DNA of 63,754 nucleotides, filler included, from Asterionella formosa (taxonomy: Eukaryota), in NCBI GenBank assembly GCA_002256025.1. It is 6 parts of 6 records of this genome, joined end to end, with 100 filler letters (N's around TTAATTAATTAA, not from the genome) between each part and the next. Parts side by side here need not be neighbours in the genome. Positions count along the whole stretch, not along the records: positions 28,249 to 56,380 come from NKIB01001297.1; 5 more parts are not named here. The stretch is one strand, 5' to 3'. Positions 9,187 to 56,480 of the stretch are shown one piece after another (position 1 is the stretch's first letter; each line of letters starts with the position of its first letter). The notes below the pieces were generated by a model. It was not told where the DNA came from. It saw only the letters and a list, made by a program, of their open reading frames with translations, and searched no databases. Made by a program: the position numbers and the translations under genes.

Positions 9187-12100
9187 CAGCCTTGTAACTT
9201 CTGGCGAGAAAGTACAGAAAGGAACTTGGGCTTTTTACTATGCCAAATAAACAGATTTCCCTGAATTTTCGAGTCTTTTTAGCCAACAGTATAGTTCATT
9301 GTCCTGGACCCCCCTATGGTTGCTGGGCCCCCCTGCACATTTTTCTTGAGGTGGAACCAAACACCCAATAATATTCTTGCCATAGACAAAGTAACGTGCT
9401 ATACCGGTAGGTAATTCTTTTGATCCTTGTACTAGGCACTAGTAGTATATAATTATTTAGCTATCATGTTGCGATTCTTTTGTACATACAAAACTCAAGA
9501 GAAGACAAGTAGTGGCTGTGAGCACCTGGAGAATGCTTCATCATGTTGTCGCAACCTTGATCATGGCGAAAATACGAATTATCTCCACGAAAATAGAGAA
9601 CAACGCTTTGCTACTTGTTACCTGTATTAAGAACGACATGGAAAATACGATCGTAAAAGAAGTAAAGAAATAACACTTATAATGACAACGAAAATTGAGA
9701 TCGCCGATATCAACATGAAGTCGCGTTTTTCTTGCGAGGTGAAGAACTCTCTCATTTTTCATATCACGGAAATAATTGTCATGTTAATTTATCTTAGGAA
9801 AATGTGCGCTATCCTGTATGGCTGGGTGCATGATCGAAGAACATATAGTAGCTCTATTGGGCCTGGTACAAAGCATTATTTCTAAAAATATAGCCAAATA
9901 TTTTGCGCGATGAATCTCTTGTTGTTACAACCATCACCATGTTGATTGCGCTTGGTTGGTTACCTTTGCTTCCCTTCAGTGCCTTGTGTTTTGCGATATA
10001 GTATTAGAACAGTGATCTAGCGCTGATCGGAAACCAAACCGCAAAACAGGTGAAATCAAACTTTCAGTTGTTTGGACGATATTTTTCTTTGGTGATGGCG
10101 GAGTCATCACTACATGGGCGCTGGATTCCGGCCGACCTCCTCATTCACTACATGAACCAAAATTACAACATTGGAAGCAACATGCTATTGACTACGCGAA
10201 CATTGATGACATACATGAACAAGTGCTACCCTTCAATGTCCTATAATCCCAATAGAATTACCAATACAAGCAGTGGCACAGTGGTGGACTTCTATAGAGC
10301 CAACTGTCAAGTCAAGAGCGTCCGCTACAACCTATTCTTCTTTTCTGACCATGGTTTTCCTGCTCCTTTGTTTCCGAAGAACAGTAATGTCGCTTCTTTC
10401 TTAATAATAGCGTCACAAAGCGACTATTAGGGGGTTCAAGGCAAATTCGAACTGGAGAGGTGATGGATAATCTTGAAGTTGGATCACTCAACAAACAAGC
10501 CAAATTGATGAACTCAAATGAAGCTGATACTCCCTCCATTGAAGCCTTAAATCAACATCAATCATCATCAACAATTTCGGATACTATAGAGCAAGAGCAG
10601 GTTTGTCTGAGCATAGATTATTGGAACAAGTCAGGTGAGGCCAGGACACTATTTGCTCCCAAAGCAAAGTATGGAAATGAAGCCAATGTCAAAGGAGTTG
10701 TGATTTCCCGAATTGAGCTGTTCTAATCAATTAATAGACATCCCAACCATTGGAAACTTTTTGTGGAAGGGGAGATGCTGATAAGCATTGCTCCAAATTC
10801 GAAATCTTCATGCTAAGACAGAGGAGTTTATATTTGGCCTGTGCTTTGAGGCAGTTTGTTCAGAAGGAAATTGAGGAAACCAGATGGACCTGGCAGCGGT
10901 GCATCCAATATTCAATTGGAGTTATGAGTTATCTTGGAATAGAAGCCTACTCCAATGTGAGGACTCTTGGAAGGTGGCATCGGCAACTGGCATACAATTT
11001 ACAAGATGCTTTCTGCAAGTCGCCAATCAAAAAGGATAAGATCCCTCCATTCTTCCAATCAAATCCTGATGCCATGAATGCATTCAAGAAATTTGGGATC
11101 GCCAATTTAAATGACTTGTCTGTGGAAAAAATGTATGAATATGTTCATGAACATCTGGTACCAACATTGGTTGCGAGTTTGGGTGTAGATGGTCCTGATG
11201 ATTGCGACGTCTATGAAGACTTACCAGCAAGACCAGGAGTTGTTGAGGACAGTGAATTAATCAACAGCAGAGAACAGTTCCTTCTGACCTATGGTTTGAC
11301 AAAGATCTCAATTTGTACAATTGCAAGGTGGATGCATACAGTTGGATTCAAGTATGAGACTCAAAGGAAACATTACTTTGTCGATGGTCATGAGAAGGCA
11401 GACACCTTAGCCTACCGTAGAATTTTCATTGCTGAATACTTCAAGCAAGAGGTTAATGCTCCAAGGTGGGTACATTTTACAGCAGAAAAATCTAAACTTC
11501 TAGAGTCACAAGGTTTAGTTGTCAAGAATACTGGATTTCATTACAGTGACCATGATGGAATCTCTATGGTAGAATATCATGCAGAAAACTTTGATACCTC
11601 ACCGGATCTTCCAATGGGAGGCAATTGTAGTGTGCGAAAGAAAAATGTCGAGCAAACTGTTATGATTGTTGGACAGGATGAAGCAATATTCAAACAATTT
11701 TTATTGAATTCCAAGATGTGGACAGGTCCGAATGGCGAGAGACCCCTACTACCAAAAGATGAGGGTTCTGGAGTAATGATCAGTTCATTTATCACTCGAG
11801 AGCATGGCTTGATAAGAGAAATCGATGACAATATTCTTACAACGGTCAATGCCAATAGACTTGGAGCAAGTTATGCAGATAAGGAAGGAAGCTGCAATTG
11901 ATGTACATGGGACCAAAAAGAAGAAGCCATTGACAAAAAAACAATTCTCCATTCTTAGTCTACTTTGATTATGAAGAAAATCGAGATGGCTACTGGAATT
12001 ACAATCACATGGTGTGTCAATTCGAAGACACAATTGATGTACTAAAAGTGATGCATCCACACTATAAGTTTGCTTATCTATTTGACCATTCAAGTAGACA

Positions 12101-14760: not shown

Positions 14761-16893
14761 GTGAATGACATGACCAAACACACGATGGATCCTCATTCTA
14801 CTGAGTGACGAATACTTGGCAGACTAGTCTATGTACCCATTGTGAAAGTTGGACCAATGATGAGACCTTGCTATGTAGAACCACTGTGCTTCCAATTTTA
14901 AGATATATGTTTAGCTACAAATTTTGTTACGGCAACATTGTTCCTTCAGTGCATATACCATTATTAGACTACATGCAGACCTGCATACATTGAGCTGAGG
15001 CAATTGTGGTGATATACTATTTTGTGGTACTGACACTACATTTATTCTTCATGTAAACTGTAATGTATAATACTATATATATATATTTAACACCATTTTT
15101 ATGGCATCTTAAAAACTACACTACTGGAATAGAATATTTTGTGTGGACACCCCTTGGTGGCAGGTTCAGCAAGGATCAGCCCAACATACATGGTGATGTT
15201 AATTTCTCTGCAGCATAGGAGGTGTGTGTGGATGTCCAATCTCAAATGAATGACAGGGAAAATTCTTGAGTACTAGGAAATTGTCTCTGCCAGGTGGCAC
15301 TCTTCCTTTTCTCACTTATTGCATGAAGAACGGTCTGGTCGTAGGCAATTACATGTTTGTCAATATTTAGGCGCTGAGGGCGTCTGTATTGAATAGAGTT
15401 AAAGTTGTTTGCACTTTTGGAGAAACTACCAGCCACACTTGAGCAAAGGCTGCATAGAGAAATTCCGCTTTTTCCAATATTTATTCTTTTTGTGTGGGCA
15501 TGCCTGGAGGAGTACCTCCACTGGTATTTGGTAAAGGTCTGCATCACCAGTGCAAATCAGTCCCCTGTTGGTGTAATATTCTTCGATTTTTTGGTTCAAA
15601 TCAAAGTTATCAATATTGCTATTAGATTCTTTGTGAAGAACCGCAATCCTTTCTTCCCAGGCTTTTTGCCAGTATCTAAATTTGAGTATTGGCCTCGTTG
15701 GACCAACAGATTCCTGTCTCTAGGGTCTTCCAGTTCCCTTTGTGGGTGTGGGTAACAGGGGATCTCCATGATGATGAGCTGAGATACCCATTGGCGAATA
15801 GAAAGTATATCTCCAAATAATCCAGCTGAGAATCTTGTTTGCCACTGCTCCATTGCCTCAGCTGTAGATACAATGACATGTTTGTTTCTTCCCTTGTCCC
15901 TGTTGATTGGTTGATTGTTGCCTTGCTTGAATTCTTCGCCAATCCGTCTCTTGTGTGGTTGCCAATGTCCAATGTCCGATTGTGTGACTTGAAGAAAATA
16001 ACGACTTCCATTGCGAAACTTGTTATCATTCACATCAACTCAATCCTCGCTCATATCATCGTTATCGCTACTTCCATAAGAAAGAAGAGGAATGAAAATG
16101 GACAAAAAACTGAGAGAGTTTCTGGTGGACAAAGTTGTGCAACATTATTTGGTCTGTTGCAAATGTTACTCTGTTTGATTGTCACATCATCGGCCGGGAA
16201 TACTGTGCACAGCATTTCTCTCAGCTCCAGCAGGCAACTGCCTTAGCACTGCAATCTACCTGTGAGGTGCTGCAAGACAAAAAATGAAGTATTCAAGAAA
16301 AATGGAGGACAAGGATCACGATTTCGGAGGTGTGTGACAATGTGGTGTTACTATGTTTTATTATTTTTACTACGGTATGGTGAAGTTTCATTCTTCACTG
16401 TGCTAGCTTTGCTTACCAAGAATATCCTGGTACCAGTACCACCGGTCGTAAGCTGCAAGAAACAAGGCAGGCAGCAAATAAAAAACAGCTCCTTACCAGG
16501 TACCATTGTACTGGTACCCTCCTACCTGGGAGTTGCGTGAGAGAGACAGTTTTCATAATGAGGAAAACTGAGATAAATTCTCACTACATACGGTACCTGG
16601 TAGAGTATGTGTACCTGATGGCATCTACAAAATGTTATGAGATGGATGATACCATCTGCGTCGATGCAGCACCAGTGGTTGTCATGATTTAGCGTGGCCA
16701 GCGCCAGCTGATCAAATGTTCTGTGTAAAGCACGGTTCACCTGGTACACGCCAGACGATACCATCAGGCACGGAAGAACATTTCCTCATTGTTTGCATCA
16801 AGATATCAACCTGTTGTCTCAACACTTCTCTCCCATTAAATGACATCCTCGTAGTCTACTCACAACACAACACAACATAACACCACAGGTAGT

Positions 16894-21747: not shown

Positions 21748-21841
21748 AGCAAGTTGCAGTAATTATGCAGAACAAAAGATTTAGCTATCTTTATCTTTGA
21801 TTAAAATTTTTTTTTTAAAGCAAATGACCGCAGGTTGCAGG
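21748..21841. mobile_element. About 95-bp MITE, copy 1 (degenerate)
   Basis: GCAAGTTGCAGT...GATTTAGCTATCTTTATC...ATGACCGCAGGTTGCAGG-TA, homologous to 38980-39077 and 47847-47942. Confidence 0.7.
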
Positions 21842-21940
21842 TATGCACCAACATTTGGTCGATTAAGACTTCGACCGTACCTGGTACCCCGTACCGCAAA
21901 ACCTGGTCTCTCGTTCCCCTCAATGTACATAGCAACCACT

Positions 21941-23196: not shown

Positions 23197-24884
23197 TAGA
23201 AAATGGAAAGACAATGTATACAGAACATACAAAATTTTATACTGGACATCATTTAACGATACACATGTAACTACACTCTAGCTTCATTTCTAGCTATTTG
23301 CTAAATATTAGTATGGCGCAAGATTTGACTATTTTCGGATTTGGTTGATGCAGTGGGAAAAAATTTCGAAAAATTTCGACTACTGATAAAAAACTATTTC
23401 TTGACCATGTGATGTGTTTTGATATGAATGTCGGCTTGATCTTCCAGGAAGGCCCTGTGATGCATGTTTTATATGCACTTATTCAGTTGCAACTCACTCC
23501 CAATGACATGTCCCATGCCTACTAGACAAGACAGGCTGGTTACCAACCGCCTCTTTCTTTCTCCCCCCAATAAGGCAGGCAAGAATAAATATAATTGCCT
23601 TTTTTGTCAAAATATTTGCATGTATCATTGTATATTAAATGACAATCATGTTAACTCCAAACTTACCCCTTATCTGTGTTCTCCATGTTTTGTGGTCGAT
23701 TTGCTATTTTTGGCAATCTTTTGAGATGAACAACTGACTCCAAATCTCAAACTAAGTAGCTACACAACTGACTAGCTACTAGCCTATATGCTCCGGAAGG
23801 AGCTAGAACTTTTTTACATAAGTTTTGATAGTAAAACGTGTTATTCTGCATTCAAGGGGTCACTGCAGTTGTTTACTGGTACCTGGTACCTGGTACCCTG
23901 ATACAAAGATAGGGTGCACGGAGTCGAATATTATGGCTGGTGGACGGAAACATGCGCATCAGTTTTGAAGGTAGTACCGGGTAAGTATTCTTTCGGAATC
24001 AAATGAATATGAAAAAATTCGCACCATGTATGGTTGTTCAACCTTCTTTGTGGAACACACACAGACTGTTCTTTGCTGGGCGCATCCAGTGTGGATTCCA
24101 ATGAATTTCATTGCATCTGTTGATGCTGTCCACACCAACTCGTCATCCAATCGTTCATTCTGTCAACCATGTCTAGCTAGTATGTGTGTTCTGATTTCAC
24201 ACTTACTGTTATACAGACAACTGTTGGTCCAATAATTTTGAGCACCCTGTCATTTGTATTTTCAATCTTGCCATAAATGGGACATCATTGGAATCATCCT
24301 GCCCTTCAATGACAGAGAGAGTCTCGTTGGTAGTGTTGGAGTCGTTATCGATCTTCCTGCCCAACAATTTGGTAAATGTAAATTACAAGATGTGCTGTTC
24401 AAGCCGATTGCCCCGCCTTCCACAGAATGCGGGAATCGAGCCCGCCACCTGCCGTCTGTTTCCCAAATCACCTTGTCAAAGAAGTTCCCATTGCCAATCC
24501 TTTATCCAACGAGGCCTGGTCACTTTACCCCATCTTCTTTTGCATATCATGGGAAACCCATTGATTCATCATTCATTCCATCGATTGAGAATGCTGGCTC
24601 CCAGGTGATTGAATATTCGCCATGTTACACAGCTGCCTAACCCAAACAGACAAGAGTGGTAGAGATAATGACAAATAACATGCTGTTGCCAAAAAATTAA
24701 CGAATCTATATATTTATATACTCATCATGCATGTCCATCACTCCCTTTGGTCCTCGTATAATTGTCTTGTATCCAACTTTAACGCATGCATTATCAGTAA
24801 GGAAGCAGTGCCAGTGCCAGTGCCACTGTCAGGCCATGAAATGTTGCAACATTACTGACGTATCACTAAGCACTACTACAACTA

Positions 24885-26719: not shown

Positions 26720-26945
26720 GTACTGGAGTACTGTTACCAGTACTGGTACCAGGGTACCAGTAATAGGGTACCAGTAATAGGGTACCAGTAACAGGGTACC
26801 TGGTACAGTACTGGTACTGATACCTGGTACCAGGCATGTGTAGCTGGTGAGTACTTTTGGGTACGACGCGTACCTGTATCTGTGTACCTGGTGCACTGGC
26901 TGTGTTATGTTATGTTGAGGGATTACCGGTATACCGGTACTGGTA
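26720..26945. repeat. TA-delimited CCWGG/CCAG/CTGG/CAG motif cluster
   Basis: For example TA CCAG TA CTGG TA CCAGGG TA CCAG TA ... TA CCTGG TA CAG TA CTGG TA; includes GGGTACCAGTAAYA in three copies. Confidence 0.85.
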
Positions 26946-28148: not shown

Positions 28149-28248
28149 NNNNNNNNNNNNNNNNNNNNNNNNNNNNNNNNNNNNNNNNNNNNTTAATTAA
28201 TTAANNNNNNNNNNNNNNNNNNNNNNNNNNNNNNNNNNNNNNNNNNNN
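28149..28248. other. Artificial contig linker (N44-TTAATTAATTAA-N44)
   Basis: Identical 100-nt linker also at 56381-56480, 58225-58324, 60069-60168 and 61912-62011; the 12-mer has stops in all six frames. Confidence 0.97.
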
Positions 28249-28343: not shown

Positions 28344-29204
28344 TAAATGCCCTCATAATTTAAATAGTAACCCTTTTGAAAATGTATATTTAAATATTAT
28401 ATGTATTGTTTCTATTAGGTTCCTTTATTTAAATTTCTTGGTAGGATAATGTACCAGCTAAAGTAATATACTTTGGCTCATCATCATCAGTCTTCACGCC
28501 GATTTTTGAAACAATGACGAAATACTGGCAAAGAGGAATGGAAAGATTGTTTGCAAAAACTTCTTGAATTGTTGTTGGTCAAGTGATCATTAAATCTTTG
28601 AGTAATCATCATGTGCAGTGAACCTATGTTCATAATCATTCAATTAAGAGTTTACAGAGAAGAAATCGTTCAAACTCGGAATGGTTCTGCATTCCGATAA
28701 ACAAATTTCTTCAGGAATATAGGAATCCTGTGGAATATATCCTGTATGGGTGCATAAGAATTCCAATTCCTTTGTGCATCCAGGGATGATGCAGTACTTG
28801 CGGGCAAGGTGAAATACTTGATCCAAATGCTCATCCAAATTTGCATCTTTTCCTGGATCACGGACATGACATACATCTAAGCCGCATATCATTACGTGAA
28901 GTGACCATCACATAAATAAGCCTAGTTGATTTTGAATGCATCACATGAATTAGATGAATACATCAAAATATGTAGTTGAATATACTATCTATATATTATC
29001 TGAATACATCACGTTAAATATTTGATCAAAGTATCATGCATGCATTCCTGATCATCACTATATTACGTGATCACCTTCACGTAATTATTTGATTTACTTC
29101 ACCTAATTCTGTAATTTAGTTCACATTGCCTTTTAATTTCGTTCACATAATTCTAGAATAAAGTTCACTTAATATGTAAAATTTGTTTACGCAATTTTCT
29201 GGAG

Positions 29205-29310
29205 TTCATTCAACTAATTATCACAAGGTTGTTCAACTAATTATCTGAAGGCCATTCCACTATTTTTCTGAAGGTTGTTTAACTATTTTACTGCAGGTTA
29301 CTCAACTAAA
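29205..29310. repeat. Degenerate 23-bp tandem repeat (TTCAACTAATTATCTGAAGGTTG-like, 4-5 copies)
   Basis: Direct reading. Confidence 0.75.
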
Positions 29311-29359
29311 CTAAAGAGTTTCATTCATGAAATAAAGCCTGCTCATTCGGAACGGCATG

Positions 29360-29680
29360 CGAATGCTCCTGCACGGAAAGGGTTTGCTGCAATGTCAATT
29401 GAATGTAGAGGAAGATCAGTGTGAGTTATCAGTAGCGTTGTTGCTCATATAGCCGTCAAAATAGCGCAGTAATCTTACCACAACAACTTTCATTCCGGAC
29501 CTCATTGTCCCTGCCTGTTATCAACAACAATGCGTGAGCTGACAAGCCATACTAGCATTTAGGTACACAACAAAAACACACTCACCATTCAACTGTATTG
29601 CAGAGTTCTTTTATTTGAGTCGAGGATTCAATTGAGATTGTAGCAACCCCTTTCAATTCAGGAGAATTCGGATGAAATCC
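29360..29680 (-). repeat. About 260-bp repeat unit (permuted, inverted copy of 63489-63754) with a terminal fold-back
   Basis: 29360-29612 is the reverse complement of the 63.5-kb unit starting at a different phase; 29626-29680 is inverted relative to 29360-29405. Confidence 0.85.
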
Positions 29681-30772
29681 AGGATTGAGTATTGTTGCTT
29701 TCTGATTCTGTGTTAATGTCATATGATAACAGGGCTCCGTAAATCATGAGTTGTTATTGTGCCTTGGCGTGCTGTTTGTCATGCTGCCAGCTGCTGCTGT
29801 ATTTCTACTGAATTATTGAACAATTATGTGCCAGTCGTTCAATAATTCATCATTAATAGCAGATTCGCCCAAAATGTTGCCCTCCTGTGTTCACATTTGC
29901 AAGGGAACAAGGAATTTTTTCTGTGATGGGTCATTGTTGTCATACAACTCTCAAATCCTTGGGCATGACAAATCAAAATGTCCTTTGCCGTTGTTCTGGT
30001 GCTGCTTTGAACTGGCAAGGCGAATTATACAAGGCTGATGAAAATGGCTGGTCTGGCATACAAGATACGCAATATTCTGATGTCAACAATGGAAGGAGGC
30101 GACCAAAGGGTCAGATAGGCGGAAATTACTAAGAGAAGTCAGCTGACAATGAATCCGATACAACTATATCAATATACACCTGCTGACTACCATTTGTCTA
30201 CCACAGTCTATATCTAGTAGTTTCGAGATGTTTTTGTAACAGGGTCGCACACAAAGTTAAATAGGGTTGGGAGCAAGTGTGGGAAAACTATAGCACAGCA
30301 TGTTATGCCTACTTCCAATCATGATGATCATCCATATGTGATCAGTGTGTGAGTAGGCATCAAGAAGCCCAGCCAGCCAGTCTGGGACAGGCAACCATAG
30401 CAGGCCTTTCCTATACTATTAGCCTGTCACTAGCTAATTTGACAACCTAGCTACAATATATTGCTCTGGTACTATACAAAGGAAAATGGTGGTGATCACC
30501 ACTTGCAAGTACTACTAACTAGACTACTGGTAGCTATTTCTCGCTCTACTCGAGCGACAATGCATGCAGCATTACGTACAAGCATCAGTCTTGCATTGCC
30601 TTTGAAGCAAAGTGACATTGAGAAGAATCTATTGATACAAACACATTGATATGTAGATGTGCCCTTGAATCTCTCACAGATTTTCCAAAAGGCATTAAGG
30701 TCCATTTCGTGGTGACTATAATGAGATTGAAGAAGTACCGATTCGAGATGCGGGCCAGAGAGAGGAGCCATG

Positions 30773-31426
30773 TTATACCCTGTCTGAACAGCATGGTCCC
30801 GAAATAGATTCTTTCCTCCAAGACTGGCGCCTCAAATATGAGATCCCTGGCAGAATATGATGCAATTTATCAGATGGATCATCGTCCAAAAACAAAAGTG
30901 GAAAATAGCCATCAACCTCGTCACCGTCACCATCACCATCATAATCATCAACTGCACTGAATGGAGCACTGGGTACAGTAGAAAGAGTGACAGCAATCTC
31001 AGTATCGTGAGCGTCGTTGTCGTACTCAAACCCGTTCCTGTTCATAAAGGCTTCCGCTTGAACAACGGTGTCGCTGGAACAAAAACTATCTCGTAGAGCA
31101 TGCCCCACCTTGTCATACATGATTCTATCGTCAACAACTTGAATCCAGTCCTTCCCTTTCTTGTGAAAGAAGCGGCTACCCAATGATCGAACATCCTTCA
31201 AGACTGCCTTAACAATATTAGACTTGATGCCGCGTTTCTTACCCGCTCGTCTGTACCTAGGGATATTTAGGGCAATGATTGCCTGGAAGCGTTTGTTGCC
31301 CATGTGCCCCAAATTGGAACGATCTTTTCCGCAACGCACGTCGAATTCCGTCACAGGAAAGGTGTTCTCAGTGCCGGCAGCTCGCTTCGGATTGACGACA
31401 TGAGACGGAGTTCTAGAAGCCATCAT
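30773..31426 (-). CDS. DUF6824-domain protein, paralogue A
   Basis: DVRCGK....H.GNKRF..II......Y....K...KS.IV..V...VR..G.RF......W..V.D.....KVGHALRD. Confidence 0.85.
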   Translation of the reverse strand: MMASRTPSHVVNPKRAAGTENTFPVTEFDVRCGKDRSNLGHMGNKRFQAIIALNIPRYRRAGKKRGIKSNIVKAVLKDVRSLGSRFFHKKGKDWIQVVDDRIMYDKVGHALRDSFCSSDTVVQAEAFMNRNGFEYDNDAHDTEIAVTLSTVPSAPFSAVDDYDGDGDGDEVDGYFPLLFLDDDPSDKLHHILPGISYLRRQSWRKESISGPCCSDRV

Positions 31427-34214: not shown

Positions 34215-34904
34215 TCAAGGGCCACTTGACCAGGTAGGTGACCAGCAATCAACAATATCGTACCCCGATCGTAGACGACATGGTTCCGACGAAGATCCGT
34301 CCTTCCATGATTGGCGCCTTAAAGATAATGCCTCAGGGTGTACTATAAGGTGAAACATATCGGACGGATCGTCCAAAAACAAAAGTGGAAAATAGCCATC
34401 AACCTCCTCATCACCATCATAATCGTCAACTGCACTGAATGGAGCAATGGGTACAGTAGAAAGGGTGACAGCAATCTCAGTGTCGTGAGCGTCGTTGTCG
34501 TACTCAAACCCGTTCCTGTTCATAAAGGCTTCCGCTTGAACAACGGTGTCGCTGGAACAACAACTATCTCGTAGAGCATGCCCCACCTTGTCACACATGA
34601 TTCTATCGTCAATGACCTGAATCCATTCCTTCCCTTTCTTCTGGAAGAAGCGGCTACCCAATGATCGAACATCCTTCAAGACTGCCTTGACAATATCGGA
34701 CTTGATGCCGCGTTTCTTACCCGCTCGTTTGTACCTAGGGATATTTATGGCAATGATTGCCTGGAAGCGTTTGTTGCCCATGTGCCCCAAATTGGAACGA
34801 TCTTTCCCGCAACGCACGTCGAATTCCGTCACTGGAATGGTGTTTTTAGTGCTGAAAGCTCGCTTAGGATTAACGGCATGCGATGGAGTTCTAGGAGTCT
34901 TCAT
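34215..34904 (-). CDS. DUF6824-domain protein, paralogue B
   Basis: Same domain, highly similar to 30773-31426 over nearly the whole CDS; C-termini diverge. Confidence 0.85.
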   Translation of the reverse strand: MKTPRTPSHAVNPKRAFSTKNTIPVTEFDVRCGKDRSNLGHMGNKRFQAIIAINIPRYKRAGKKRGIKSDIVKAVLKDVRSLGSRFFQKKGKEWIQVIDDRIMCDKVGHALRDSCCSSDTVVQAEAFMNRNGFEYDNDAHDTEIAVTLSTVPIAPFSAVDDYDGDEEVDGYFPLLFLDDPSDMFHLIVHPEALSLRRQSWKDGSSSEPCRLRSGYDIVDCWSPTWSSGP

Positions 34905-35906
34905 ATTACGAGTCTCCTAGTGCTGGAACACTATTTTTTGTGAGTTTCGGGGGTAAGGGAAAACCAAGCGAAAGTGAGCTTACCGGTAGGGTCGCAATGA
35001 GAACTACCGGTATGTACGTCGCAGATGCTCAGTGTCCGAAGAACATTCAGCTATACGTGCGTACCTTTCTGATTCTCCATTCCATGAGAACCACGCTGCC
35101 TCCCTGTCAGCGCTTGTTAGTTTCCATGCTGATGCGAGCGCTTGATGCTGATCCGTCCGTTTCAATGTAATTGGGAATATTGCATTGGGCATGCATCCGA
35201 CCATGCTTATTTTTTATGACACCTTCATCTTTAAATGATACCATCGGTAACACTATTGCTGATCAAAGTTTACATTTTCATGACATGTACCCCACTTACG
35301 CATATATATCGGTAGTCGTGAGTGCACTTACTAAATATGACTAATATGATACGATCCGTCAAAAATTTCGAATGAGTCATCGGAATAGAAACAATAAAAG
35401 GGACAGGGCTCAACTCCCGGCAATGAAAAACACACGGAACAATGGCCGTACTCAAAATTTTCGAAGTTTTCCGGGATACTAGCTGTTAACGCTAAAACTC
35501 GTTTTGCTAGTTTCCCCGAATTTCTTGACAAGGCCAGCCAATAAAACCCTATACAATACTCCTTAGTACTTTTTGAGACTATGATTTAGTTACTTCGATT
35601 TCTTTTTACCAGCAAAATCAATTGCCCTTATATTAGTTGCATCATCTAGTTTGATGCTCAACATGTTGCATGTGAATGATATATATTTTTGACCAATTTC
35701 AACTACCCCGTACCTGTATTATATACATAGAAGATTGATCATACCACAAAATATGAGCGATGAGAGCCATCTTCTTAGGGCTGATACAAAAAACATTTCC
35801 GATAAACACACGTTCTGATAAGCAAACCAGTTGTCATGACGTCAAAACATATCCTACTACTAGCATTAATTTTTCTGATAAACTACCCTGGAAAAGAGGC
35901 TAATTT

Positions 35907-35950
35907 TTTAACAGCAAAATCGAGATTCAAATCTCGATTTTGCAGTTAAA
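35907..35950. repeat. 20-bp-arm inverted repeat (hairpin)
   Basis: TTTAACAGCAAAATCGAGAT-TCAA-ATCTCGATTTTGCAGTTAAA, one mismatch. Confidence 0.9.
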
Positions 35951-36099
35951 CCAGAATGTGCTATTTGCGTAGCCAATCATAATTTTGGTTGAAGGTGGGC
36001 TATCATTGCTGATGCTGGTCTGGTTTGTTTGGTGATTGTCACATTTTATTTGTCAAGTAAATTTGATAAAGTACGCTATTGTTAATGAACTCGACAATT

Positions 36100-36240
36100 G
36101 TGGAGGTTGTAAAGTCGCACTGGGCCCCCCAGATGGCCTCAGACCTGCTCGTTGTATAACTCACCACCTGGAACCCAAGGGACTAGTACATAAACATCAT
36201 AATGGGTGAAGAATGCGGGAATCGAACCCGCCACCTCAGA
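36100..36240 (-). mobile_element. 5'-truncated SINE-like copy
   Basis: Minus strand TCTGAGGTGGCGGGTTCGATTCCCCGCATTC (B box) ... TTACAACCTCC, paralleling the 23-kb copy. Confidence 0.5.
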
Positions 36241-36733
36241 AGGTGTCCATCATACCTTATAGAATAGGTATATTTATAGGCTGCTCCAAATGTACTTTGT
36301 CCTGATGATGGATTGTATCCTTGTATCCACCAATATTCTTTGCGGTTAACAATCTTTCAAGTCGAGTTTGGCTGGTTCTACTCCAGAAATATCCCATTCC
36401 AGAACCAATAATTGGGATATTGGCCATGCCATCTGCATGAATCAGAAAAAAGTGAAGACGGCAAATGCAATACTACATAATAACAGGTGGTGGTATCAAG
36501 TCAAGCTTAAACATGAGAGGCCTCCACAACACTTCCCTTCTTGAATATACTATACCAAAAACCCGTTCAATAATATTTCGTTTCCCCAAATATGTATAGA
36601 TTGTACAACATATACTTAATCATTCATTAATATCTGTATAAAAAGAATTTAGCCACCGGCATATGTATACCGGTATTCCGGTATAGGTACTGGTACCAGT
36701 AGACCACATCCTGATAGTCTACGGTACCTGGTA

Positions 36734-38854
36734 CCAGTCAAAAACTGCTTAAGACCACTATGAACTGCTTAGACCACTATAACGGGGTAATCTTACTTTT
36801 TGTACTACAAACTTTTTCAATTTTAGCAATACGACAATATTTACTATGAACAAGTCATTTGTTTCACGCATCTACATTTAGGATGTCTTGACGCCTGATC
36901 GATGTTGTGTTCCAGTTGTTGAGATAAACGACCACGAAAATGTTGAGTGAGGCACATCGGAAGAAAATAAAATTACCTCGTTTAGCTGGGCCGACATTTT
37001 ATCTTCATAATCGATATTGATTAAAGTTTTATACTCCAAATTAATATAGCTTCATTTAACGCTTTTCTTCAGGTGGATAATTACTATGGCGCAATTATGT
37101 GCAACATCCCAATCTAAACATGCACGATAGTTCGCACCATAGAAATCAAGTGATTTTGTACTGTCAACATATGTACCGATATGCATCCTGAAATGCTCTG
37201 GAGACAATCAAAAAATACCACATCTATTTTCATATTTTCGGATCTTTCTACCGGTACTTACCGCTAGTACTATTACAAACCGAAGATGCACCAAACCTCG
37301 AGCAAAGTACAGAGTTATGTAAGACTCTAGATAAGGAAATAGTAAAGCTTGTTCTAAACAACATTGTTAGAGAACTAGAAGCTACAAAGGCTAACAATGT
37401 AGGAGTGTTGCCATATGGTGCTATCACTAGATTAGTAGCAAACAAAGGTGGCAAAATTACGTGGCTAACAAAAGACATGGTGATGTACCATGTGAAGAAA
37501 TACAGATCTAGTAGTAGGGGGTTTAAATTCTACAGTTCTATTGGATTACTCCCCAGCAAATCAAATTGAAACCAGCAGCATACTTACCTTTGCATCCAGA
37601 AACTCCACTACTGCATCCACTTTGACAACAGTAAAACTCAGAGGAAAAAAGCAGTGTGAGAAACAATTGTCTAACAGATAGACCTGATCAGCATGAGAAT
37701 GAACAAACACAACTTTCCGGTGAGAAGGGGGGGGGGGGGGGACAAGTAAGAAAATTGTGCTGCAATTGAGACCACGCAACTTCCTCCAGCACCAGGCGCA
37801 AATGGCTGTCCCAAACACAGCACCATGGCATTTTCAAGAGACTACCAGCAACGCATTAAATGATCAACCAACGAACTACAACACACTTCTTCATGATGAA
37901 ATACAACTGACAGCAGTTTCAGCAACCCAGACAGAATTGAATGCCGCTATCTCGACCATCACACCAGCAGGACTGAATCTAAAGGAAGGTATCACCTGCA
38001 CCCTTCTTGACAAAGTTATTGAATTCAGGCACAAAGAGGATTCAAGGAATGACATCAATCTTGATAAGATGGCTTGCCAACGGAAGGAATCGGCGCTATG
38101 GCCGATCGCGCAAAATAGAAGGTAGACAGCAGGACTTAATGTGGCGGCTGGAAGCACTTGACGATATGACTAGGATGAAAAGAAGAGCAGAGGAGAGGAG
38201 AAGGATTGTGAGAAAGCGAATAAGAAAGTTATGAACTACACAGCAACATTGAACAAGGTGCAAGCGATCAGAGCGCTCAACAAACAGGAACTCGAATGGA
38301 CGGTGGCGCAAACAAAAACAATAGTGTCTTGCTGGTACAAACAAGTTGGCGATGCGCCATTACCTGCAACAAAACATCTAATGCTTACTTACCAGATACA
38401 TTGATACATTGGGACGTGGCGATGAACCAGTCTCAGTTGCCGGAGCTATACCGCCACCAGCAGCCTCGGCTGAAGGGGACAACGAGGATGAAGTCGTGGT
38501 GAAAGAAGAGTGATTTGTGTGTTCCGCTCAAAAAATCGACGTCATTTGACACAAGAAATTGGAGAAAATATGGAAAACGAGGTAATATTTCCTAACCGTT
38601 TACCATTAAAAAATATATTTACATGATGAAAAATATATGAATGGCTTAAGACCACTAAAATGCAAAATGAACGACTTAAAAAGTTCGATATCGCAAGATA
38701 TATCCTTCCAATTGTTAAAATGATTCATTTATCTAGTACTTGCATGCATTAATTGACCTATATTCAAAGGGTTTTAAATGGGGTCGGCTGAACATTTTTC
38801 TAATTTTAGTCCAAAAACGGGGTAATATAGTGGTCTTAAGCAGTTTTTGACTGG
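36734..38854 (+). mobile_element. pogo-like non-autonomous element with perfect 28-bp TIRs and TA target duplication
   Basis: TA|CCAGTCAAAAACTGCTTAAGACCACTAT (36734-61) and its exact reverse complement (38827-54)|TA; remnants of a transposase N-terminus (LPYGAITRLV...WLTKDMVMYHV) and C-terminus (WYKQVGDAPLPATK); no DDE core seen. Confidence 0.9.
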
Positions 38855-38979
38855 TACCCTATACTACCAGGTACTCTACCTAAACTTGAACTGTGGTGAT
38901 AAATGAACATGCAGTATTTTAGTATCAGGAACTCCCTCCATGTGAAGGAAACATACCGGTATGCGATGCTTCCGTCCTT

Positions 38980-39077
38980 CACCTGCAAGTTGCAGTGATT
39001 TTGCTGAAACTAAGGATTTAGCTTTCTTTATCCCATATTGAAATGTTAGTTTCAGCAAAATGACCGCAACTTGCTGA
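38980..39077. mobile_element. About 95-bp MITE, copy 2
   Basis: About 30-bp imperfect TIRs GCAAGTTGCAGTGATTTTGCTGAAACTAA / TTAGTTTCAGCAAAATGACCGCAACTTGC. Confidence 0.85.
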
Positions 39078-39238
39078 TATTGGCAACACATGGTCCCCAT
39101 AGCTAGGACATCATCATACAGGTATAGAAGTGGGAGATCTTTATGGTTCTACCTGATATTTGTTGGCACAAGGCGAAGATGTTTGGAGCAATCACCAGGT
39201 GGAAGTGCTACTTTTGTGGTATTCTATCAAGCTACAGC

Positions 39239-40810
39239 ATGCGACCAAAGGACGTATTGATTCGTGGCTTTGTATGTTTATCAGTGATCTCGATTGTCCT
39301 CAACGCGAATTCTCCTGTCATGTTCGGTAGCTACATGCCATGCAGTACTCCAACAACTTTGTTGGAAAGTCAAGAAATCAAGGCGTCATCAAATAAGACA
39401 ATGGGTGCCTGTGTCTTTGTCATGGACGAGCGAATCAAGCTTTTGGAATTCATTGCGTATCACTGTAAGTACGTACTGTTTTCCTGACGTTTATTCTTAA
39501 GGTGAAAAAATACAATTACGCTATGTACATATGATCCATCAACAACTCGCGTGACAAATTCGCTACTCACTAATTTAGAGATGCTTTGCAATTTCTGCAT
39601 TCTCCATGTTGGCGTCGTGACTTCCGCGCCATTGACCATCGAATACGCAGACACAGTGCTGCCTTTAGGAAACCTATTGATTGGAATCAACCCTAACTCA
39701 AGGAATGTCGAGATAATTGAAGCGATTGTAGACTTATGGAAAGACCGCATGAATATCCAACTCGTCCATTCCGACCAATACATGGTATATGGTCCTACTG
39801 AAGGCTGGATTAATCCAGCTCGGATTCGACGTGGAAAGACTTTTGAGAATGACGTAATTTCTTCCTCATGGTTCCACAACAAAAGTTCCAGACAATACCT
39901 CACCATTTCTTTCTGGAGGGATCAAGCAGCCTTCAATATCTATTGCATTCAACTCATGCTCAATCGATCCGCTGGTTATACAATCGTGCTTGACAGTGAT
40001 GAATACCTTGTGAATAACTACTTTTCGACTCTAGAGAATTCGTCTTTGTATGAATACAGGCGCTTCAAAAAAGGACCTCGTAGCACCAAAGGGATAAATC
40101 GGGCTCGAGCTATTGCCAAACCGATTCGCGAAGCCCTTCCTGTCATGAGAGAACATATTACCATGGTAGAACTTCTTTCAAATTTCACAGGGCCGACTTG
40201 GGCAACTACACCTCACTGTATTCGAGTAGCATCATTACCATTCCTCAGTTTTGAAGGAGGCAGACATCAGAAACCCATTGTCACTCCCTCCTTTGTGAAT
40301 CAAGACCACTTGTCAACACTTCGCCAGACATTTCATGCACATTACGATTTCGGTACTACAAAAGCCATTCTTAACTTGGACCCCCACATGTTTCCTCCCG
40401 AAAATGCAACTGTGAAAGATTTTCCATCCATCCATAATCCATCCATATTTGCGTGCGGTCCAAATCTACCGCATCAGACTGGAACAGATTATATTTCGTC
40501 AACGTGGCGTTTACAACACTATCGCACAGGCACGATTGAAAGTGTGCTCGAGCGAGGCTCTGATTATCGAATGACAAATTTTGATTTAGTTGGCTTTTTC
40601 AAGACTCGTCAAACTGGCCCTGTAGTGGGACAAGACTTTTCCATCATCCTCTGGGTTGAGTGGTTCATTGTAAAGGTTGGCGAAATCGAGTCAAAGCGTC
40701 TCCTGTTTACACCACTTCAAGAGGCATATGAGCTTATGATGAACCATTCGTATAAGAACTTTGAGCAGCAACTCAAGATAAATCCAAGGGTGCAAGAGTG
40801 GAAAGAATGA
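39239..40810 (+). CDS. Type II membrane GT-A glycosyltransferase (GT92/GT2-like, diatom family), two exons
   Basis: N-terminal hydrophobic anchor; intron 39465-39650 (GTAAGT..CAG) restores MGACVFVMDE..KLLEFIAYHYTVLPLG; DSDEY DxD motif; C-terminal LQHY; alternative start at 39143. Confidence 0.8.
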
Positions 40811-41738
40811 TCAGTAAGCACCAGGTACTGAAATAGGGAGGAAATTGTTTTGGGTAAGTCCACAGTCACGATGAAGAGTTTATGAGTACTATTGGACATT
40901 GCATTGAACCATATGGGGTATTTAACAACCTGTCATGGTGCTGGCATATGGTTTATCTACGATTCTCTTGTCAAGTAGTGCACTGCAGGAAGCCCTGATT
41001 CATGAAAAGGAACGACTTCTGAAAAGTCATAAATAATCCGTTTCTTTCCTTTTTGGAAGTGTGGAAAGAAAAAAGGTTTTTTGTTAATGAAATACAGATG
41101 CTGCAATAGTAAAACTGCTACATCTTGTCCCGAAACAACCTGCACACACAAAATGATACTTTGAGTCTGGAGGCTGCGACTCTAGGGAAGAAACAGCAAG
41201 TATCAGTGAAGAAATCATGGCAAGCATATGTAGTGGAAAGCATAGAGAATGATAACATTTTCTTTCTCCAATGCAAACAAATTGACTGATGTATTTTTGG
41301 GCTATGAGTACAACAATTAAAGTTTTATCTTATGTACCAGGTACCACACTTGCAATAATTTTTTTTTTAAAATTTCGAAGCGCGCCCATCACTGGTGCCC
41401 TTTTTCGTTCCACGAGGAAGCATCTCCCGCCCTCGATTATCGTCCTCTTTTTGCCTCCGCCCAGCAGCCGTCGTCGTCCCCGAAACGATAAATGATGCGT
41501 ATTTATTTTATTAGCTAACTACCGTTTAAGCATGACAAGGTCAACCTGGTACCTGGTGCCTGGTACTGTAATCTAGTTGTAATCTACGTGCAGTATTTAC
41601 TATAGATGAAACTTGTAAATTTGATTCCACCTGAGGATACGGAATGAACGCAAAAAATTCTGATTATAAATTTTAGCCTATCAGCCAGATTGCTCTGCTA
41701 TACTTGATCAAAGCAAACTCAAACTTCCGTATTAGATA

Positions 41739-44700
41739 ATGCCTCCTTTTCCAAATGAAGGAGACAACGAAGAAGAAGAAGAAGAAGACGACGACGACGA
41801 CGACGAAGAAGAAGACGAAGACTACGACGAAGGAGAGGACGAAGAAGAAGACGACGAACTCGTAGGGTCGCAAGAGGAAGAAGGCGACGACAACGACGAA
41901 GCTTCCGATCTCAGTGAATTTTCTCAAGACGATGACCTCTTGTACACGCTAGATCACTACGACGAAGCAGCATTGCCAGAGTACGCATGTCGTTATTGTG
42001 GCATCCACGACCCCTCGTGCGTTGCCATGTGCGTAGAAACACAGAAATGGTTCTGCAACGCCAATTCACATTTGGTCCATCACTTGGTCCGCAGCCGCAA
42101 CTACCAAGTGCAGCTCCACCCAGAATCGCCTCTAGGAGAAACAGTCTTGGAATGTTACAACTGCGCCTCCAAAAATGCATTCGTCATGGGCTTTGTGCCT
42201 GCCAGTAGTTCGAGCGTCGTGGTGCTGCTGTGTCGGGTGTGTGTAGAAACAGTGCCTGGCCTCAAGGACATGGAGTGGGAACTGTCGCAATGGCATCCAC
42301 TCATTCAAGATAGGAAATTCCTGCCATGGCTTATTAAGGTGCCATCGGACAAGCTTTTGCTCAAAGCGAGGGAGATTACTCCCATGCAAATGAACAAATT
42401 GGAGGAAATGTGGAAGTTGGACCAGGCTGCGATTTATTCTCACCTTGACAGACCTGAATTAGCTGAAGAAGAAATGACTCCCACGCTGCTCCAGTACGAA
42501 GATGGATATCACTATCAAAATGTGCTGGCGCCGTTGGTCAAAATGGAAGCGGACTATGATAAGCAAATGAAAGAATCTCTCACGGAGGGGAGCATCCGGG
42601 TCAATTGGGACAAGTCACTGCAGGGAAAGTTCATTGCTTCATTTCATTTTGGAGGGAGATCGGCGGAACAGACACGGATTATGGTAGGCGATGAGTTGAG
42701 ATTAAAATTAGGGGATGGGGCTCAATTCTTGCACGGAAAGAACTGGGAAGGTGTGGGTTACGTCAAGGATATTATTGATGGGGAGGTGGAATTGGAGCTC
42801 AGGTCGGGAGTAAGTGTGCCATTGGACGTCACAGACGACTACGTGGTGGAATACATTTGGAAGGCTACATCCCATGATCGGATGCAGAACGCCTTGAAAA
42901 CCTTTGCGATTGATGACACAAGTGTTACGGGGTTCATTTATCATAAACTACTGGGCCACGATGTAGAAGAACAGAGAATTTTAACTGCCAAGGTGCCAAC
43001 TGATTTTACAGTACCCGGGTTGCCTCCTTTGAATGAATCGCAGAAAGCAGCGGTTGCTGCTGTTTTGCAACGTCCAATGTCCTTAATTCAAGGGCCCCCT
43101 GGTACAGGGAAAACAGTCACCTCAGCCACGTTGGTGTATTTTTTGACCAAGCAAGGTATGGGACAAGTGCTGGTAACAGCGCCATCGAACGTGGCTGTAG
43201 ACCAATTGACAGAAAAGATTGCCGCAACTGGACTTCGGGTCGTGCGTCTCGCGAGCAAAACCAGAGAAGCTACCCTCTGTTCGGTGGATCATCTATGTTT
43301 GCACGTAATGACGCCATTAGCAGCAGGAGATGAATTTAGCAAGTTGCAACGACTAAAGGACGAGATTGGCGAACTAAGTGAACGAGATCAAAAGAAGTAT
43401 AGGGGATTGAGGAATCGTACGGAACGAGAGATTTTGCAAGCTGCAGATGTCATTTGTTGCACGTGCGTGGGAGCAGGCGACCCCCGGTTGAAAAACTTTC
43501 GATTCCGTCAAGTGTTAATCGACGAAGCGACGCAAGCCATTGAGCCGGAAGCACTTATTCCTATTACCACAGGTGCTAAACAAGTGATTATGGTTGGCGA
43601 TCATTGCCAATTGGGACCAGTTGTCATGTGTAAGGGTGCAGCCAAGGCTGGATTGACGCGTTCCTTGTTTGAACGATTGGTCCTGGCTGGCGTCCGTCCT
43701 ATCCGCCTGCAAGTTCAGTATCGTATGCATCCTGCGTTGTCTGAATTTCCTTCCAATATGTTCTATGAAGGCTCTTTACAAAATGGTGTGACGGAATCAG
43801 ATCGTCAGTTGTTGACTCTTCCCTCATTTATTGGGAAGGAAGACTTTCCTTGGCCTGATCCCAGGAAGCCAATGTTCTTTTATTCCATTACCGGAATGGA
43901 GGAAATCTCTTCTTCGGGAACATCCTATCTTAATCGTACAGAAGCCTCCTATGTCGAAAAGATTGTCACCCACTTTTTACGTATGGGTGTTACACCGTCT
44001 CAAATTGGAGTCATTACACCTTACGATGGCCAAAAGAAGTATGTTCAAGAGTATATGCGTCGATCCGGTGCCCTTGCCAGTGCTTTGTATGAGGCGATTG
44101 AAGTTGCTTCCGTCGATGCGTTTCAGGGCCGTGAGAAGGACTTTATCATAGTTTCATGTGTCCGTTCCAGTGAAACACAGGGTATTGGGTTCTTGTCAGA
44201 TCCACGTCGTCTAAATGTTGCGTTGACGCGAGCTCGCCTTGGTCTCATTTTGCTGGGCAACCCCCGCGTTTTAAGCAAGAATGCCTTGTGGGCTGCCTTA
44301 TTGCTTCATTTCAAGGAAATTGACACGCTGGTCGAAGGACCTCTCAACAATTTGCAACCCACGTACATGGCTTTTGCAAGGCCTCGAAGGAATCCAGTCG
44401 GAGATTCTCGTTACGCCTTCACTGCCTTGGCTCGAGGTGCATGGGATGGACGATGGGATGATCGAGAGCGACATGGTGATCGTGAGGCCAAAGTTGCACC
44501 TGGATTCCGTTCACGTCACAAAGATGCACACTCAGATAGTCGGTTTGATCCTCGATACAGCAAAAGCTCTGGTTACGACAATAGTGAGGCTCGTGGTGGG
44601 GGCTTGCCTATCCCCAAGTTCGCTCCCTTGCCCAGCTATGGTGCTGATGACGTAAGCAGTGTTGGAGGGGACTCGCAGTATTCTCAGTCTCAATTCAGTC

Positions 44701-44828
44701 GTGCCAGTATTCACACTCAGCGAATGCAAGAACAGCTTCGTGCGGGACCTTCGCTGGGTTTCTTTGTTGGTGGACCCGCTGGGGATTATTATACTTCGCC
44801 TGATGAGCGTAATTCAGGGGGGCATTGA
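41739..44828 (+). CDS. UPF1: Regulator of nonsense transcripts 1, SF1 RNA helicase
   Basis: CH zinc domain ([23 protein letters not shown]), [56 protein letters not shown]; intronless 1029 aa. Confidence 0.98.
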
Positions 44829-47060: not shown

Positions 47061-47846
47061 TCACTGGAAAATGTGCCCAAAATGAGTGCTTCCTATATGG
47101 CATCAAAACATGATCCCAGTGTCTTTATTGCTGAGCGACCAAAAACAAACAGGCAAACCTGGAGAACCAACACCAGAAACAGAATGACAGCAAGCTGCAA
47201 CCAACCTAACCTGTTTAGATTCATTTGAATGGGCTTCTTGGAAACCCGAAAAGATGGTGAAAAAGTAGCTACATTAAAGACCAAAACTGCTATGTACTGC
47301 AGAAAGTCTGGTTCAATCACATGACAAATTGTCAGCTGACAACTCTGGAATAAACTAGATAAGATTCTGGAGCCATCAGCATTCCATGATTTATCTATAA
47401 GTAGTAAGGACCAACTTCACTGCTACAACCTACAATGATTGATGTATAACATGGTTCTGTAATTTGTGATGCAATTGGATTTCCGAAAATGGACGTTTTT
47501 GCGAAAAGACCATAACTTCTTTAAAATGGAAAAAGGTTTAGATAGTATGAAGGGCACTTTGAATTTCCGTTTTGAAGAAAAGAATGGAGGGCACACCATT
47601 TTTTGCCCAAAGTGAGTGTCGAACAGGTCAGGGCAACTCAAGTCGTAACAAAATACATACCACTGGTATCGGTACAGGTAGGTAGAAGTGTATTTACCGG
47701 TATATGTGGGTGTGGTCCGCCCGGAGAAGAGTACTAATGTTGACGTGTTGTACCACCTGGTACCTGGTACCTGCTGACCAGAATGTGTCAGTTGGACCTC
47801 AGCCTTAGAATTAAAAAGACTGGTATCCACATTCATCAAAGACCTA

Positions 47847-47942
47847 CCAGCAAGTTGCGGTCATTTTGCTCAAACTAACATTTTAATCTGGGATAAAGAT
47901 AGCTAATTCTTTAGTTTTAGAAAGTACCGCAACTTGCAGGTG
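47847..47942. mobile_element. About 95-bp MITE, copy 3 (inverted relative to copy 2)
   Basis: TA|CCAGCAAGTTGCGGTCATTTTGCT...ACCGCAACTTGCAGG|TG. Confidence 0.85.
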
Positions 47943-48545
47943 AGCAACTCCTCCGGGTACCTGGTACGATCAGCCAGAAATCGCAGATCACGACCACCAC
48001 GACCAGGAGCCGTTTGATCATAAAGCAAAGGCAGCAACCAAGCAACATCAATCGACTAGGGAGCATATCTTATGTATGAAAGGAGCACATAAATGTCAGC
48101 TGGCATAGCCACATCGTATGCCTAGCCTACCCGGTAGACTGACGACTTGGTCGTCTATGTATTTGTGTATGAATATTGTATGAGGCAGAGTACGAGTACT
48201 AGGTGTGCCAAAACATGTTTCATGTTGTACCTGGTACCAAGTACAGTACCAATCATTATATGATCCATGACATGCGGGTATGTAAAATGACATATATGAA
48301 TAGATATTTTTTGGTATTATTTAATCACTTTACTATACAAAAGAGACGTAAAATAGATCTTCCATCAGACAAGCATAAAAATAAGCTTACATCATAATAG
48401 CACTACCGGTAAGGTAACACGCACCCGTATTGCTGTTACCGGTAACCGATTACTGCACCTGGTATTACTCATTCATCCTTCTTTGGCTCGTTGTAATCCT
48501 GCGTTGTCCTCATTGTCACTATCACTACTACCTATCATCTACAGC

Positions 48546-52399: not shown

Positions 52400-53174
52400 C
52401 TTGTTACCAGTACCGGGGTACACCAGTGTAGTTTTTGTTTCAAGAATAATACTCCATAAATATAGCTAGAAGATATTTTCTGATTTCGAGGAGTGCATTT
52501 TATTTTTTCTTCCTGAGGTACGTAGGTACCTGGTACATGGTACATGGTACCACACCGGCATGGAGACAGGAGAGAATTGGGACCAGAGGTATTGTAGTTT
52601 TACTTAAGGGCAATGGGGTACGTATTTATATACATATATGGATGAGCGTACGACCATCAATCGGATAGCTGGATTGTTGGATAATGCTCCGACATGTTGT
52701 TAGATTGTATATATATACTGGCTAAATGTTTAAAAAGGGAGCTCGCTCGGCATGAACCAAATTTTGAATTCGACAAAATTTGTATAAGGATATGTATATA
52801 TAAACATTCGATTTTTAATTTTTATCTATATCTTCAGTACTGTAGTGAAGGCTTCCCATTGTACTGTGCCAGTATTGACAATTAATTCTACCCCCAATAC
52901 TACCATTTTTTGTCGCAGTGAAAGCTAGTGCACTAGTTAACTATCATGATGCACGTACAAAGCATGCACTGTGTGTGAGTGGGCGGTGCCACCATTGCTG
53001 GTACCAGGTACCAGGTACTAGGGTTACCACTGGCGATGCTGTTACAATGCATGAAGTACCCTGGTACCTGGTACTACGGTATGTACCAGGTACCAGCACC
53101 ACTGCAACCTTTCAACATTTGGTTGACAAGAATGTGATTAACAATCTTATCCTGACCATATGTCTCATAGATTT

Positions 53175-54221: not shown

Positions 54222-54488
54222 AACTGGTACTTACATGATGGAGGAATACTAGAACTTACATGATGCTCAGTAGAGTACAGTAACAGCAGCCAGGACCTCG
54301 TTCGTCACCATTATCCAAGCGGGAACTACCCTGGTACCGTACATAGAACTGTACTAACGTTCAAGTTTGGCTATGGTATTGATCAATACTACCGGTAGGT
54401 ATTTGAACATGATTGAAAACACTTGAAGCTCATTATTATGATATAATGCCGAAGTACTCAGATTATAACATAGGTAGTGAATGATAAA

Positions 54489-56380: not shown

Positions 56381-56480
56381 NNNNNNNNNNNNNNNNNNNN
56401 NNNNNNNNNNNNNNNNNNNNNNNNTTAATTAATTAANNNNNNNNNNNNNNNNNNNNNNNNNNNNNNNNNNNNNNNNNNNN

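Follow-up and report, generated by a model that had tools for sequence, protein, structure and literature searches.

Among described cut-and-paste transposons, Sleeping Beauty leaves a TA-C(A/T)G-TA footprint after three-nucleotide staggered cuts (available part of PMC12255080), and the pogo element Passer leaves footprints of 0-4 bp and shows a preference for promoters (available part of PMC9976928). Pogo elements, as described in the available part of PMC7386202, have TA duplications, short inverted ends and transposases of 300-977 aa with DD29-56D spacing, and Fot-like, Mover and Lemi pogo elements have been reported in stramenopiles. Here, we describe a 63,754-nucleotide stretch from the diatom Asterionella formosa (NCBI GenBank assembly GCA_002256025.1; hereafter the window, meaning the whole stretch that was analysed), in which a 2121-bp non-autonomous transposon with perfect inverted ends sits inside a GGTACC-rich tract of short C/G words bounded by TA dinucleotides, one of several such tracts. 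We propose that the tracts are insertion hotspots of TA-targeting transposons with CCWG...CWGG ends (W, A or T), and that most of their sequence was left by earlier excisions, a reading on which our confidence is evenly balanced.

The units that make up the tracts resemble the footprints of Tc1/mariner and pogo elements in that TA or GTAC is followed by two to five letters of a resident terminus and then by TA. Their middle letter is A or T, as in the Sleeping Beauty footprint (PMC12255080, in the part available), and their sites are promoter-proximal, as are Passer insertions (PMC9976928, likewise in part). They differ in that the footprints described so far each record one event, in an assay or a mutant allele, whereas those proposed here would be stacked at hotspots, would duplicate the extended G-TA-C target and would be fixed in numbers large enough to supply the top over-represented words of intergenic DNA. 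Excision scars as such are known, but their accumulation into a dominant, self-duplicating, promoter-proximal class would be new.

Words between TA dinucleotides

The window joins at least six contigs, separated by linkers of the form N44-TTAATTAATTAA-N44 at 28149-28248, 56381-56480, 58225-58324, 60069-60168 and 61912-62011, and because of this neighbourhood across a linker is meaningless. Under a first-order Markov model 6.7 GGTACC and 0.3 TACCGGTA would be expected, whereas the window has 41 and 22 of them, respectively; TACCGGTA is its top over-represented octamer after the C run at the window start. As many as 34 of the 41 GGTACC are part of a unit with a second TA and the seven isolated ones stand at chance level, therefore the enriched object is the two-TA unit and not the hexamer. 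When the window was shuffled 200 times with its dinucleotides preserved, the TA-bounded words CCGG (TA-CCGG-TA, 22 vs 0.26), CCTGG (14 vs 0.18), CCAGG (7 vs 0.10), CTGG (13 vs 0.70) and CCAG (10 vs 0.79) proved to be enriched 13- to 85-fold, with CCGG (22 vs 0.29 in this second comparison) the sole word present in more than one copy among the 16 four-letter C/G words between TAs. A first-pass annotation of this stretch had parsed the tracts into these five words together with CAG and CTG; the five stand, whereas CAG (6 vs 3.4) and CTG (3 vs 3.4) show no enrichment over the shuffles as TA-bounded words, though both do occur as spacers between GTAC cores.

The distance from one GTAC to another has a sharp peak at 7 (21 vs ~1.2 per bin), the spacers between cores being CTG (11), CAG (4), TG (5) and CA (2). 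Fifteen canonical GTAC-CWG-GTAC units are present in the window, each reading as target, three element-end letters with A or T in the middle, and target again, and the units in general bear this form of resident-terminus letters between two targets. The annotation had linked the words to transposon ends, and their spectrum does match the termini of two resident families ending CCWG...CWGG. The outer flanks of TACCWGGTA are G/C in 36/42 cases, which matches the G-TA-C target of the larger of these families described below; the corresponding counts are 28/46 for TA(CCAG/CTGG)TA and 8/44 for TACCGGTA.

The 2.1-kb element, its target and related families

The larger family is represented in the window by the following features:

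36734..38854, + strand: non-autonomous cut-and-paste element, 2121 bp, with perfect inverted ends and TA on both sides
36734..36761, + strand: left terminal inverted repeat, 28 nt, starting CCAGTC
38827..38854, - strand: right terminal inverted repeat, 28 nt, the + strand ending GACTGG
36732..36733: TA left of the element, which could be the duplicated target itself or the centre of a GTAC duplication
38855..38856: TA right of the element
36668..36733: left tract, reading TA CCGG TA, TTCCGG TA, TA CTGG TA CCAG TA, CCAGT+AGACCAC, TA CGG TA CCTGG TA
38855..38879: right tract, reading TA CCC TA TA C TA CCAGG TA CTC TA CC TA

The complete element with TA-CCAG...CTGG-TA ends that the annotation had placed inside a tract is thus present as described. 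Its 28-nt ends are 100% complementary and recur in four metagenome loci (L002-L005), and the palindromic flank GGTA/TACC lengthens the inverted repeat to 32 nt. Compared by eye with the terminal repeat, the CCAGT+AGACCAC of the left tract may be a leftover of that end which has lost its middle.

To place the target, metagenome contigs were scanned with the inner part of the inverted end, which avoids bias on the terminus or the flank. This gave five loci, of which L001 was dropped as an unrelated contig with integrase and methylase open reading frames (ORFs). The eight ends comprise seven of the window family (two in the window, one each in L002, L003 and L005, and two in L004) and one of a related autonomous-like copy in L005. 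All eight lie at G-TA-CC: G precedes the TA in 8/8 ends compared to 981/4037 TAs of the window, GG in 7/8, and CTGG in 5/8 compared to 54/4037. Both complete copies (window and L004) have TA at both flanks, and with G-TA-C as target, duplicating TA alone or all 4 bp of GTAC (the termini then being CAG...CTG) would produce identical sequence; a 6-bp target duplication is ruled out by L004 (AGTACC vs GGTACC). The bacterial IS630 likewise uses a four-base palindromic target with TA at its centre, CTAG, of which only the central TA is duplicated, and target use of this type would explain the ambiguity here, although IS630 is bacterial and its other target letters differ. To our knowledge, no scar accumulation has been described for IS630.

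There is no ORF longer than 133 aa in the element. A tblastn search with P0124, a transposase of ~930 residues, matched residues 31-234 at 37315-37875 and residues 716-899 at 37868-38389, on the same strand and in order; because N- and C-terminal parts are retained in order and the core is gone, the element is an internal-deletion derivative of one encoding a ~930-aa transposase. It is high-copy, with differently deleted derivatives, and its summed contig depth is ~100-400x that of neighbouring single-copy bins in four sequencing runs, a depth that is not to be read as a copy number. At 37727-37741 the element carries a run of 15 G, where the copies in L002, L004 and L005 have 7 G.

A word-indexed search returned 296 relatives of P0124, the named ones being only hypothetical proteins of Fragilaria crotonensis, and a profile search of 1.84 billion representatives indicated a very large family (9374 representative clusters at E of at most 0.001), listing close relatives alone with no bridge to DDE_1. 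In an alignment of 48 members D463 and D612 are invariant and D650 is kept in at least 90%, giving a DD37D arrangement. A Pfam scan of the family found no model and detected no N-terminal helix-turn-helix family; DDE_1 itself was matched by 0/8 proteins at E of at most 1 and by 1/48 members at E 0.085, and a PDB sequence-profile search yielded 0 hits. For the catalytic part, 10/10 of the nearest named Atlas clusters carry DDE_1 or HTH_Tnp_Tc5 (scores 0.91-0.95), which is a lead and not a test. Judged on these sequence features, the ~930-residue transposase is probably pogo-like. Its element, a few kb long with inverted ends of at most 40 nt and a TA on either side, matches that superfamily, as do DD37D and the length of the protein, both within the described ranges (PMC7386202, in the part available), but it differs in that DDE_1 is below detection, no N-terminal helix-turn-helix family is found, and the G-TA-C preference has no counterpart in the available part of that source.

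Positions 1-2500 of L005 hold the autonomous-like relative, with a 641-codon ORF of the P0124 family that lies ~580 bp inside a related inverted end (CCACCTAAAAACTG...) and is truncated by the locus edge; this copy is 500 bp from the second, non-autonomous one. Scans of viral contigs gave 0 hits for the repeat end and 0 for the transposase, and two double-unit matches from the viral-contig scan (L006 and L007; GC 65% and 26%) were unrelated. The prokaryote genome collection yielded one short, 38%-identical transposase relative without usable ends (L008), on a 2.3-kb contig filed under a Cytophagales bin that is probably a misbinned eukaryotic contig.

The second family is a miniature inverted-repeat transposable element (MITE), with one copy in L002 and the following three in the window:

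38979..39079, + strand: MITE copy, ~100 bp, with ends CCWGCAAGTTGCRGT
47845..47943, - strand: MITE copy, the + strand starting TA-CCAGCAAGTTGCGGTCATTT
21749..21844, + strand: MITE copy with a degenerate left end

All four copies lie within ~100 bp of a tract; the L002 copy sits inside an array that otherwise reads as four 7-bp units, and contigs of one run (X1) join MITE ends to tract sequence. The right end abuts TA in 3/4 copies, and the TA flanks of the family lack the G/C of the larger element. The annotation had this MITE start TA-CCWG, which is so at one end in two of the three window copies, the other end being CA or degenerate. The family resembles Stowaway-like MITEs in its ~100-bp length, self-folding, 15-nt inverted ends, several copies and TA at one end, unlike which TA stands at both ends in 0/4 copies here.

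Origin of the units

Direct comparison of paralogous sequence bears on how units arise. Only 2/22 copies of TACCGGTA have an alignable paralogue (three more, upstream of the paralogous genes 30773 and 34215, were left uncounted as alignment fails there), and both lie in extra blocks of TA-bounded C/G words:

9402..9409: TACCGGTA inside a block of 10 nt that the 87%-identical repeat 22043-22544 lacks
37171..37263, + strand: hotspot inside the element, with extra blocks of 8, 4 and 15 nt relative to L002 and L004

At the first locus, an extra CTA and an extra GTA follow TAs within 60 bp, and the other ~480 bp are nearly indel-free. At the second, the 15-nt block reads CCGG-TA, CCGC-TA, C-TA and holds TACCGGTA at 37249, with the two further extra blocks within 95 bp. 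Two conserved codon pairs enclose this block, and the distance between them is 58 nt in the window, 42 nt in L004 and 39 nt (13 residues) in P0124 (letters counted by hand). Because P0124 represents a third lineage and is of the short form, the long form is derived and the block inserted. New units thus appear to arise as short insertions at TAs rather than by substitution, the polarity being that of the 37249 copy alone.

We propose the following course of events. (i) A transposase encoded by autonomous copies elsewhere would integrate elements at TA, nearly always within G-TA-C. (ii) Excision by staggered cuts would leave a few end letters on each flank, and end joining would convert these into TA plus CCWGG, CCAG or CTGG plus TA, that is, GTAC-CWG-GTAC. 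(iii) Such a scar would carry two preferred targets, with the consequence that further insertion and excision would pile up at the same promoter-proximal sites. Tandem duplication would further lengthen arrays, larger repeats would carry them to new places, and TACCGGTA would most simply represent CC+GG left by elements that accept any TA, for example the MITE family. In this scheme the element anatomy, the target, the word spectrum, the flank counts and both paralogue comparisons are observed, whereas we infer that the units come from excision, how long the stagger is, that the process amplifies itself and where TACCGGTA comes from.

Several observations weigh against an excision origin, and are set out here with the two rival explanations that some of them favour. 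The first concerns placement. Though ORFs of at least 200 aa make up 30.5% of the window, 0/66 units lie inside them, and units are found mostly 5' of ORFs, with an ATG 50-276 bp downstream of seven copies of TACCGGTA. Random placement in non-ORF DNA gives 8.4 neighbouring pairs of sites at 13-150 bp, whereas the window has 21, a number reached in 0/2000 trials, and 10/22 copies of TACCGGTA are within 150 bp of another word class (3.8 expected). The annotation's description of the tracts as intergenic and often promoter-proximal agrees with these counts, and all eight places that it had named show GGTACC-rich tracts. The main clusters are:

16429..16615: tract cluster
23876..23897: array (CTGGTAC) x3.1
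26745..26940: largest tract, with two adjoining TACCGGTA (26924 and 26932), part of it common to L003 at high identity
34981..35012: two TACCGGTA, 77 and 101 bp upstream of ORF 34215-34904
41334..41566: two tracts that lie 5' of the UPF1 ORF by 190-400 bp
47695..48443: tracts with three TACCGGTA, on the 5' side of the ORF at 48546
52410..53094: tracts 5' of ORF 50915-52399 (minus strand), with 52862-53074 92% identical to L003

The ORFs 30773-31426 and 34215-34904 are paralogous and 88% identical, a likeness that ends at the ATG; TACCGGTA lies upstream of both (275 bp for 30773; 77 and 101 bp for 34215) in DNA that is otherwise unalignable.

Absence from ORFs and promoter-proximal clustering are equally expected of protein-binding sites. 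The units could on that account be sites for promoter proteins maintained by selection, with dimeric GTAC-N3-GTAC and the palindrome TACCGGTA as the bound forms, at which transposons land through sequence or open-chromatin preference and to which the likeness of their ends is secondary. The placement of the 66 units and of the seven TACCGGTA near an ATG speaks for such sites, as does a tract segment that differs less between the window and L003 than the sequence around it. So does the sharpness of TACCGGTA itself, a palindrome with few decayed neighbours at non-CpG positions (15 vs ~7 expected, by arithmetic from the counts), and this sharpness together with nearness to ATGs fits a selected binding site as well as it fits a canonical scar. 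Selection on binding sites nevertheless leaves unexplained why two unrelated element families end in half of the motif, why isolated GGTACC stands at chance level, and why new TACCGGTA copies come as insertions of 6-15 nt with CTA or GTA additions nearby and not as substitutions. A literature search, limited to titles, returned primers and unrelated papers and found no such diatom motif, and TACCGGTA, ACCGGT and GGTACC are absent from the available main text of one diatom regulatory-motif preprint. We consider binding sites an unlikely origin of the units, if one deserving of attention. The search for diatom excision footprints, again of titles only, found nothing relevant.

Repeat dynamics provide the second rival explanation. 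GGTACC seeds present by chance might have been expanded into short tandem repeats, by replication slippage or unequal exchange, and dispersed within larger repeats, with transposons merely preferring the resulting tracts. Tandem Repeats Finder reports 7-bp units repeated 2.1-3.7 times at seven places, and at 26751-26800 a 14-bp unit repeated 3.6 times with 97% matches, a tandem duplication. The spacers of adjacent CWG pairs (two strict and one relaxed) are identical in 3/3 cases, too few for a test of random A/T choice, and homologous tracts differ by unit-sized indels. Furthermore, a 55-nt tract piece is nearly identical between the window and L003 and is kept inside a larger repeat (window pieces 26458-26831 and 52862-53074), therefore tracts also spread by copying. 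It counts against slippage that most units are single, the 15 canonical units forming only 2 strictly adjacent pairs, that different words are mixed within a few tens of bases, that the 22 isolated copies of TACCGGTA are not repeats, and that the 9402 and 37249 blocks are not copies of neighbouring sequence, with the possible exception of a 10-mer within the latter. Slippage as the principal source of the tracts seems to us improbable.

The remaining points against excision concern the words and the ends themselves. Partial words are barely enriched (CCG 4 vs 1.4, CGG 5 vs 1.3, CC 8 vs 9.7). Among the sequences one mismatch away from TACCGGTA, strong enrichment is confined to the products of CpG transition, TACTGGTA (13) and TACCAGTA (10), and the CpG observed/expected ratio of the window is 0.68, because of which the CTGG and CCAG words may in part be CpG decay of CCGG and not a separate type of scar. 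Given that G/C flanks TACCGGTA in so few cases, the larger element family cannot account for this octamer, which forms a separate class and may either come from plain-TA elements or be a protein-binding site. The sample of ends is small (eight, from five contigs), and the left ends of the MITE copies read CA, CA, TAT and, in one, are truncated, with a clean TA-CCWG in 0/4. The search for alleles covered contigs, not reads, of the four runs: among the joints (15/78) and indels (12/64) listed, none skips the element and none falls in a tract, and no series of full, scar and empty alleles appears among them, a result that is not in itself evidence of absence. A contig of one run (X2) equals the window over 34956-35987, a region with two TACCGGTA, with 0 substitutions and a 6-letter gap somewhere inside.

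The scar interpretation is the best single account of the tracts, as it alone explains that the words equal the termini, that the excess is confined to two-TA units, that elements lie at units and that new units appear as insertions. The excision scars proposed by the first-pass annotation are partly supported, by the match of words to termini, the presence in tracts of all eight ends of the larger family and of MITE copies in or near them, and the insertion of a block; the proposal needs revision where CAG and CTG lack enrichment as TA words, TACCGGTA forms its own class, at least one array is tandem and some tracts are copied within repeats.

Window context and implications

The window DNA is nuclear and from a diatom. 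Its UPF1 ORF (41736-44828) runs uninterrupted for 1030 codons, and its closest named relatives, at ~84% identity, belong to Nitzschia, Cylindrotheca and other diatoms. The stretch 34900-41700 is partly present in 20 listed runs from 16 studies, mostly labelled freshwater metagenomes. Scanning the window for Rfam families and tRNAs produced 0 matches. Top-ranked CCCCCC words trace to the C run with which the window opens (72 C at 3-74), likely an artefact of the contig end. Two short contigs, 56481-58224 and 60169-61911, are 98% identical over 1744 bp, each with a PRORP/NYN-like ORF of 357 aa, and may be haplotypes or recent duplicates. An inverted duplicate of 954 bp links 7002-7949 and 53279-54227 at 92.6% identity, its copies on different contigs. 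In run X1 the region 28400-29700, with tandem units of 22-46 bp, reaches a summed contig depth ~1000x that of single-copy sequence, and a 95% copy lies at 63489-63754, the window end. Modules rich in GGTAGAAT, AATTCTACC and the perfect palindrome GGTAGAATATTCTACC occur at 26458-26700 and 52862-52960 and in L003 at 580-1300; they adjoin the largest tracts and are common to the window and L003 at 78-92% identity. The core GAAnnTTC of the palindrome resembles a heat-shock-factor site.

In its broadest form, our proposal is that pogo-like elements targeting G-TA-C, together with CC+GG scars, wrote the top over-represented promoter-proximal words of this DNA as a self-amplifying scar, with later use in promoters possible. 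This we put forward tentatively, as a prospect somewhat short of even. The case also brings to light a transposase family whose target, G-TA-C, is extended and simple to score and for which a scar can be predicted. The usual view of scars is that of rare, isolated lesions; should they accumulate until they dominate the words of promoter regions, cut-and-paste elements would shape regulatory DNA even after leaving it. In that event, motifs over-represented in the promoters of little-studied eukaryotes would call for comparison with transposon termini before being taken for binding sites.

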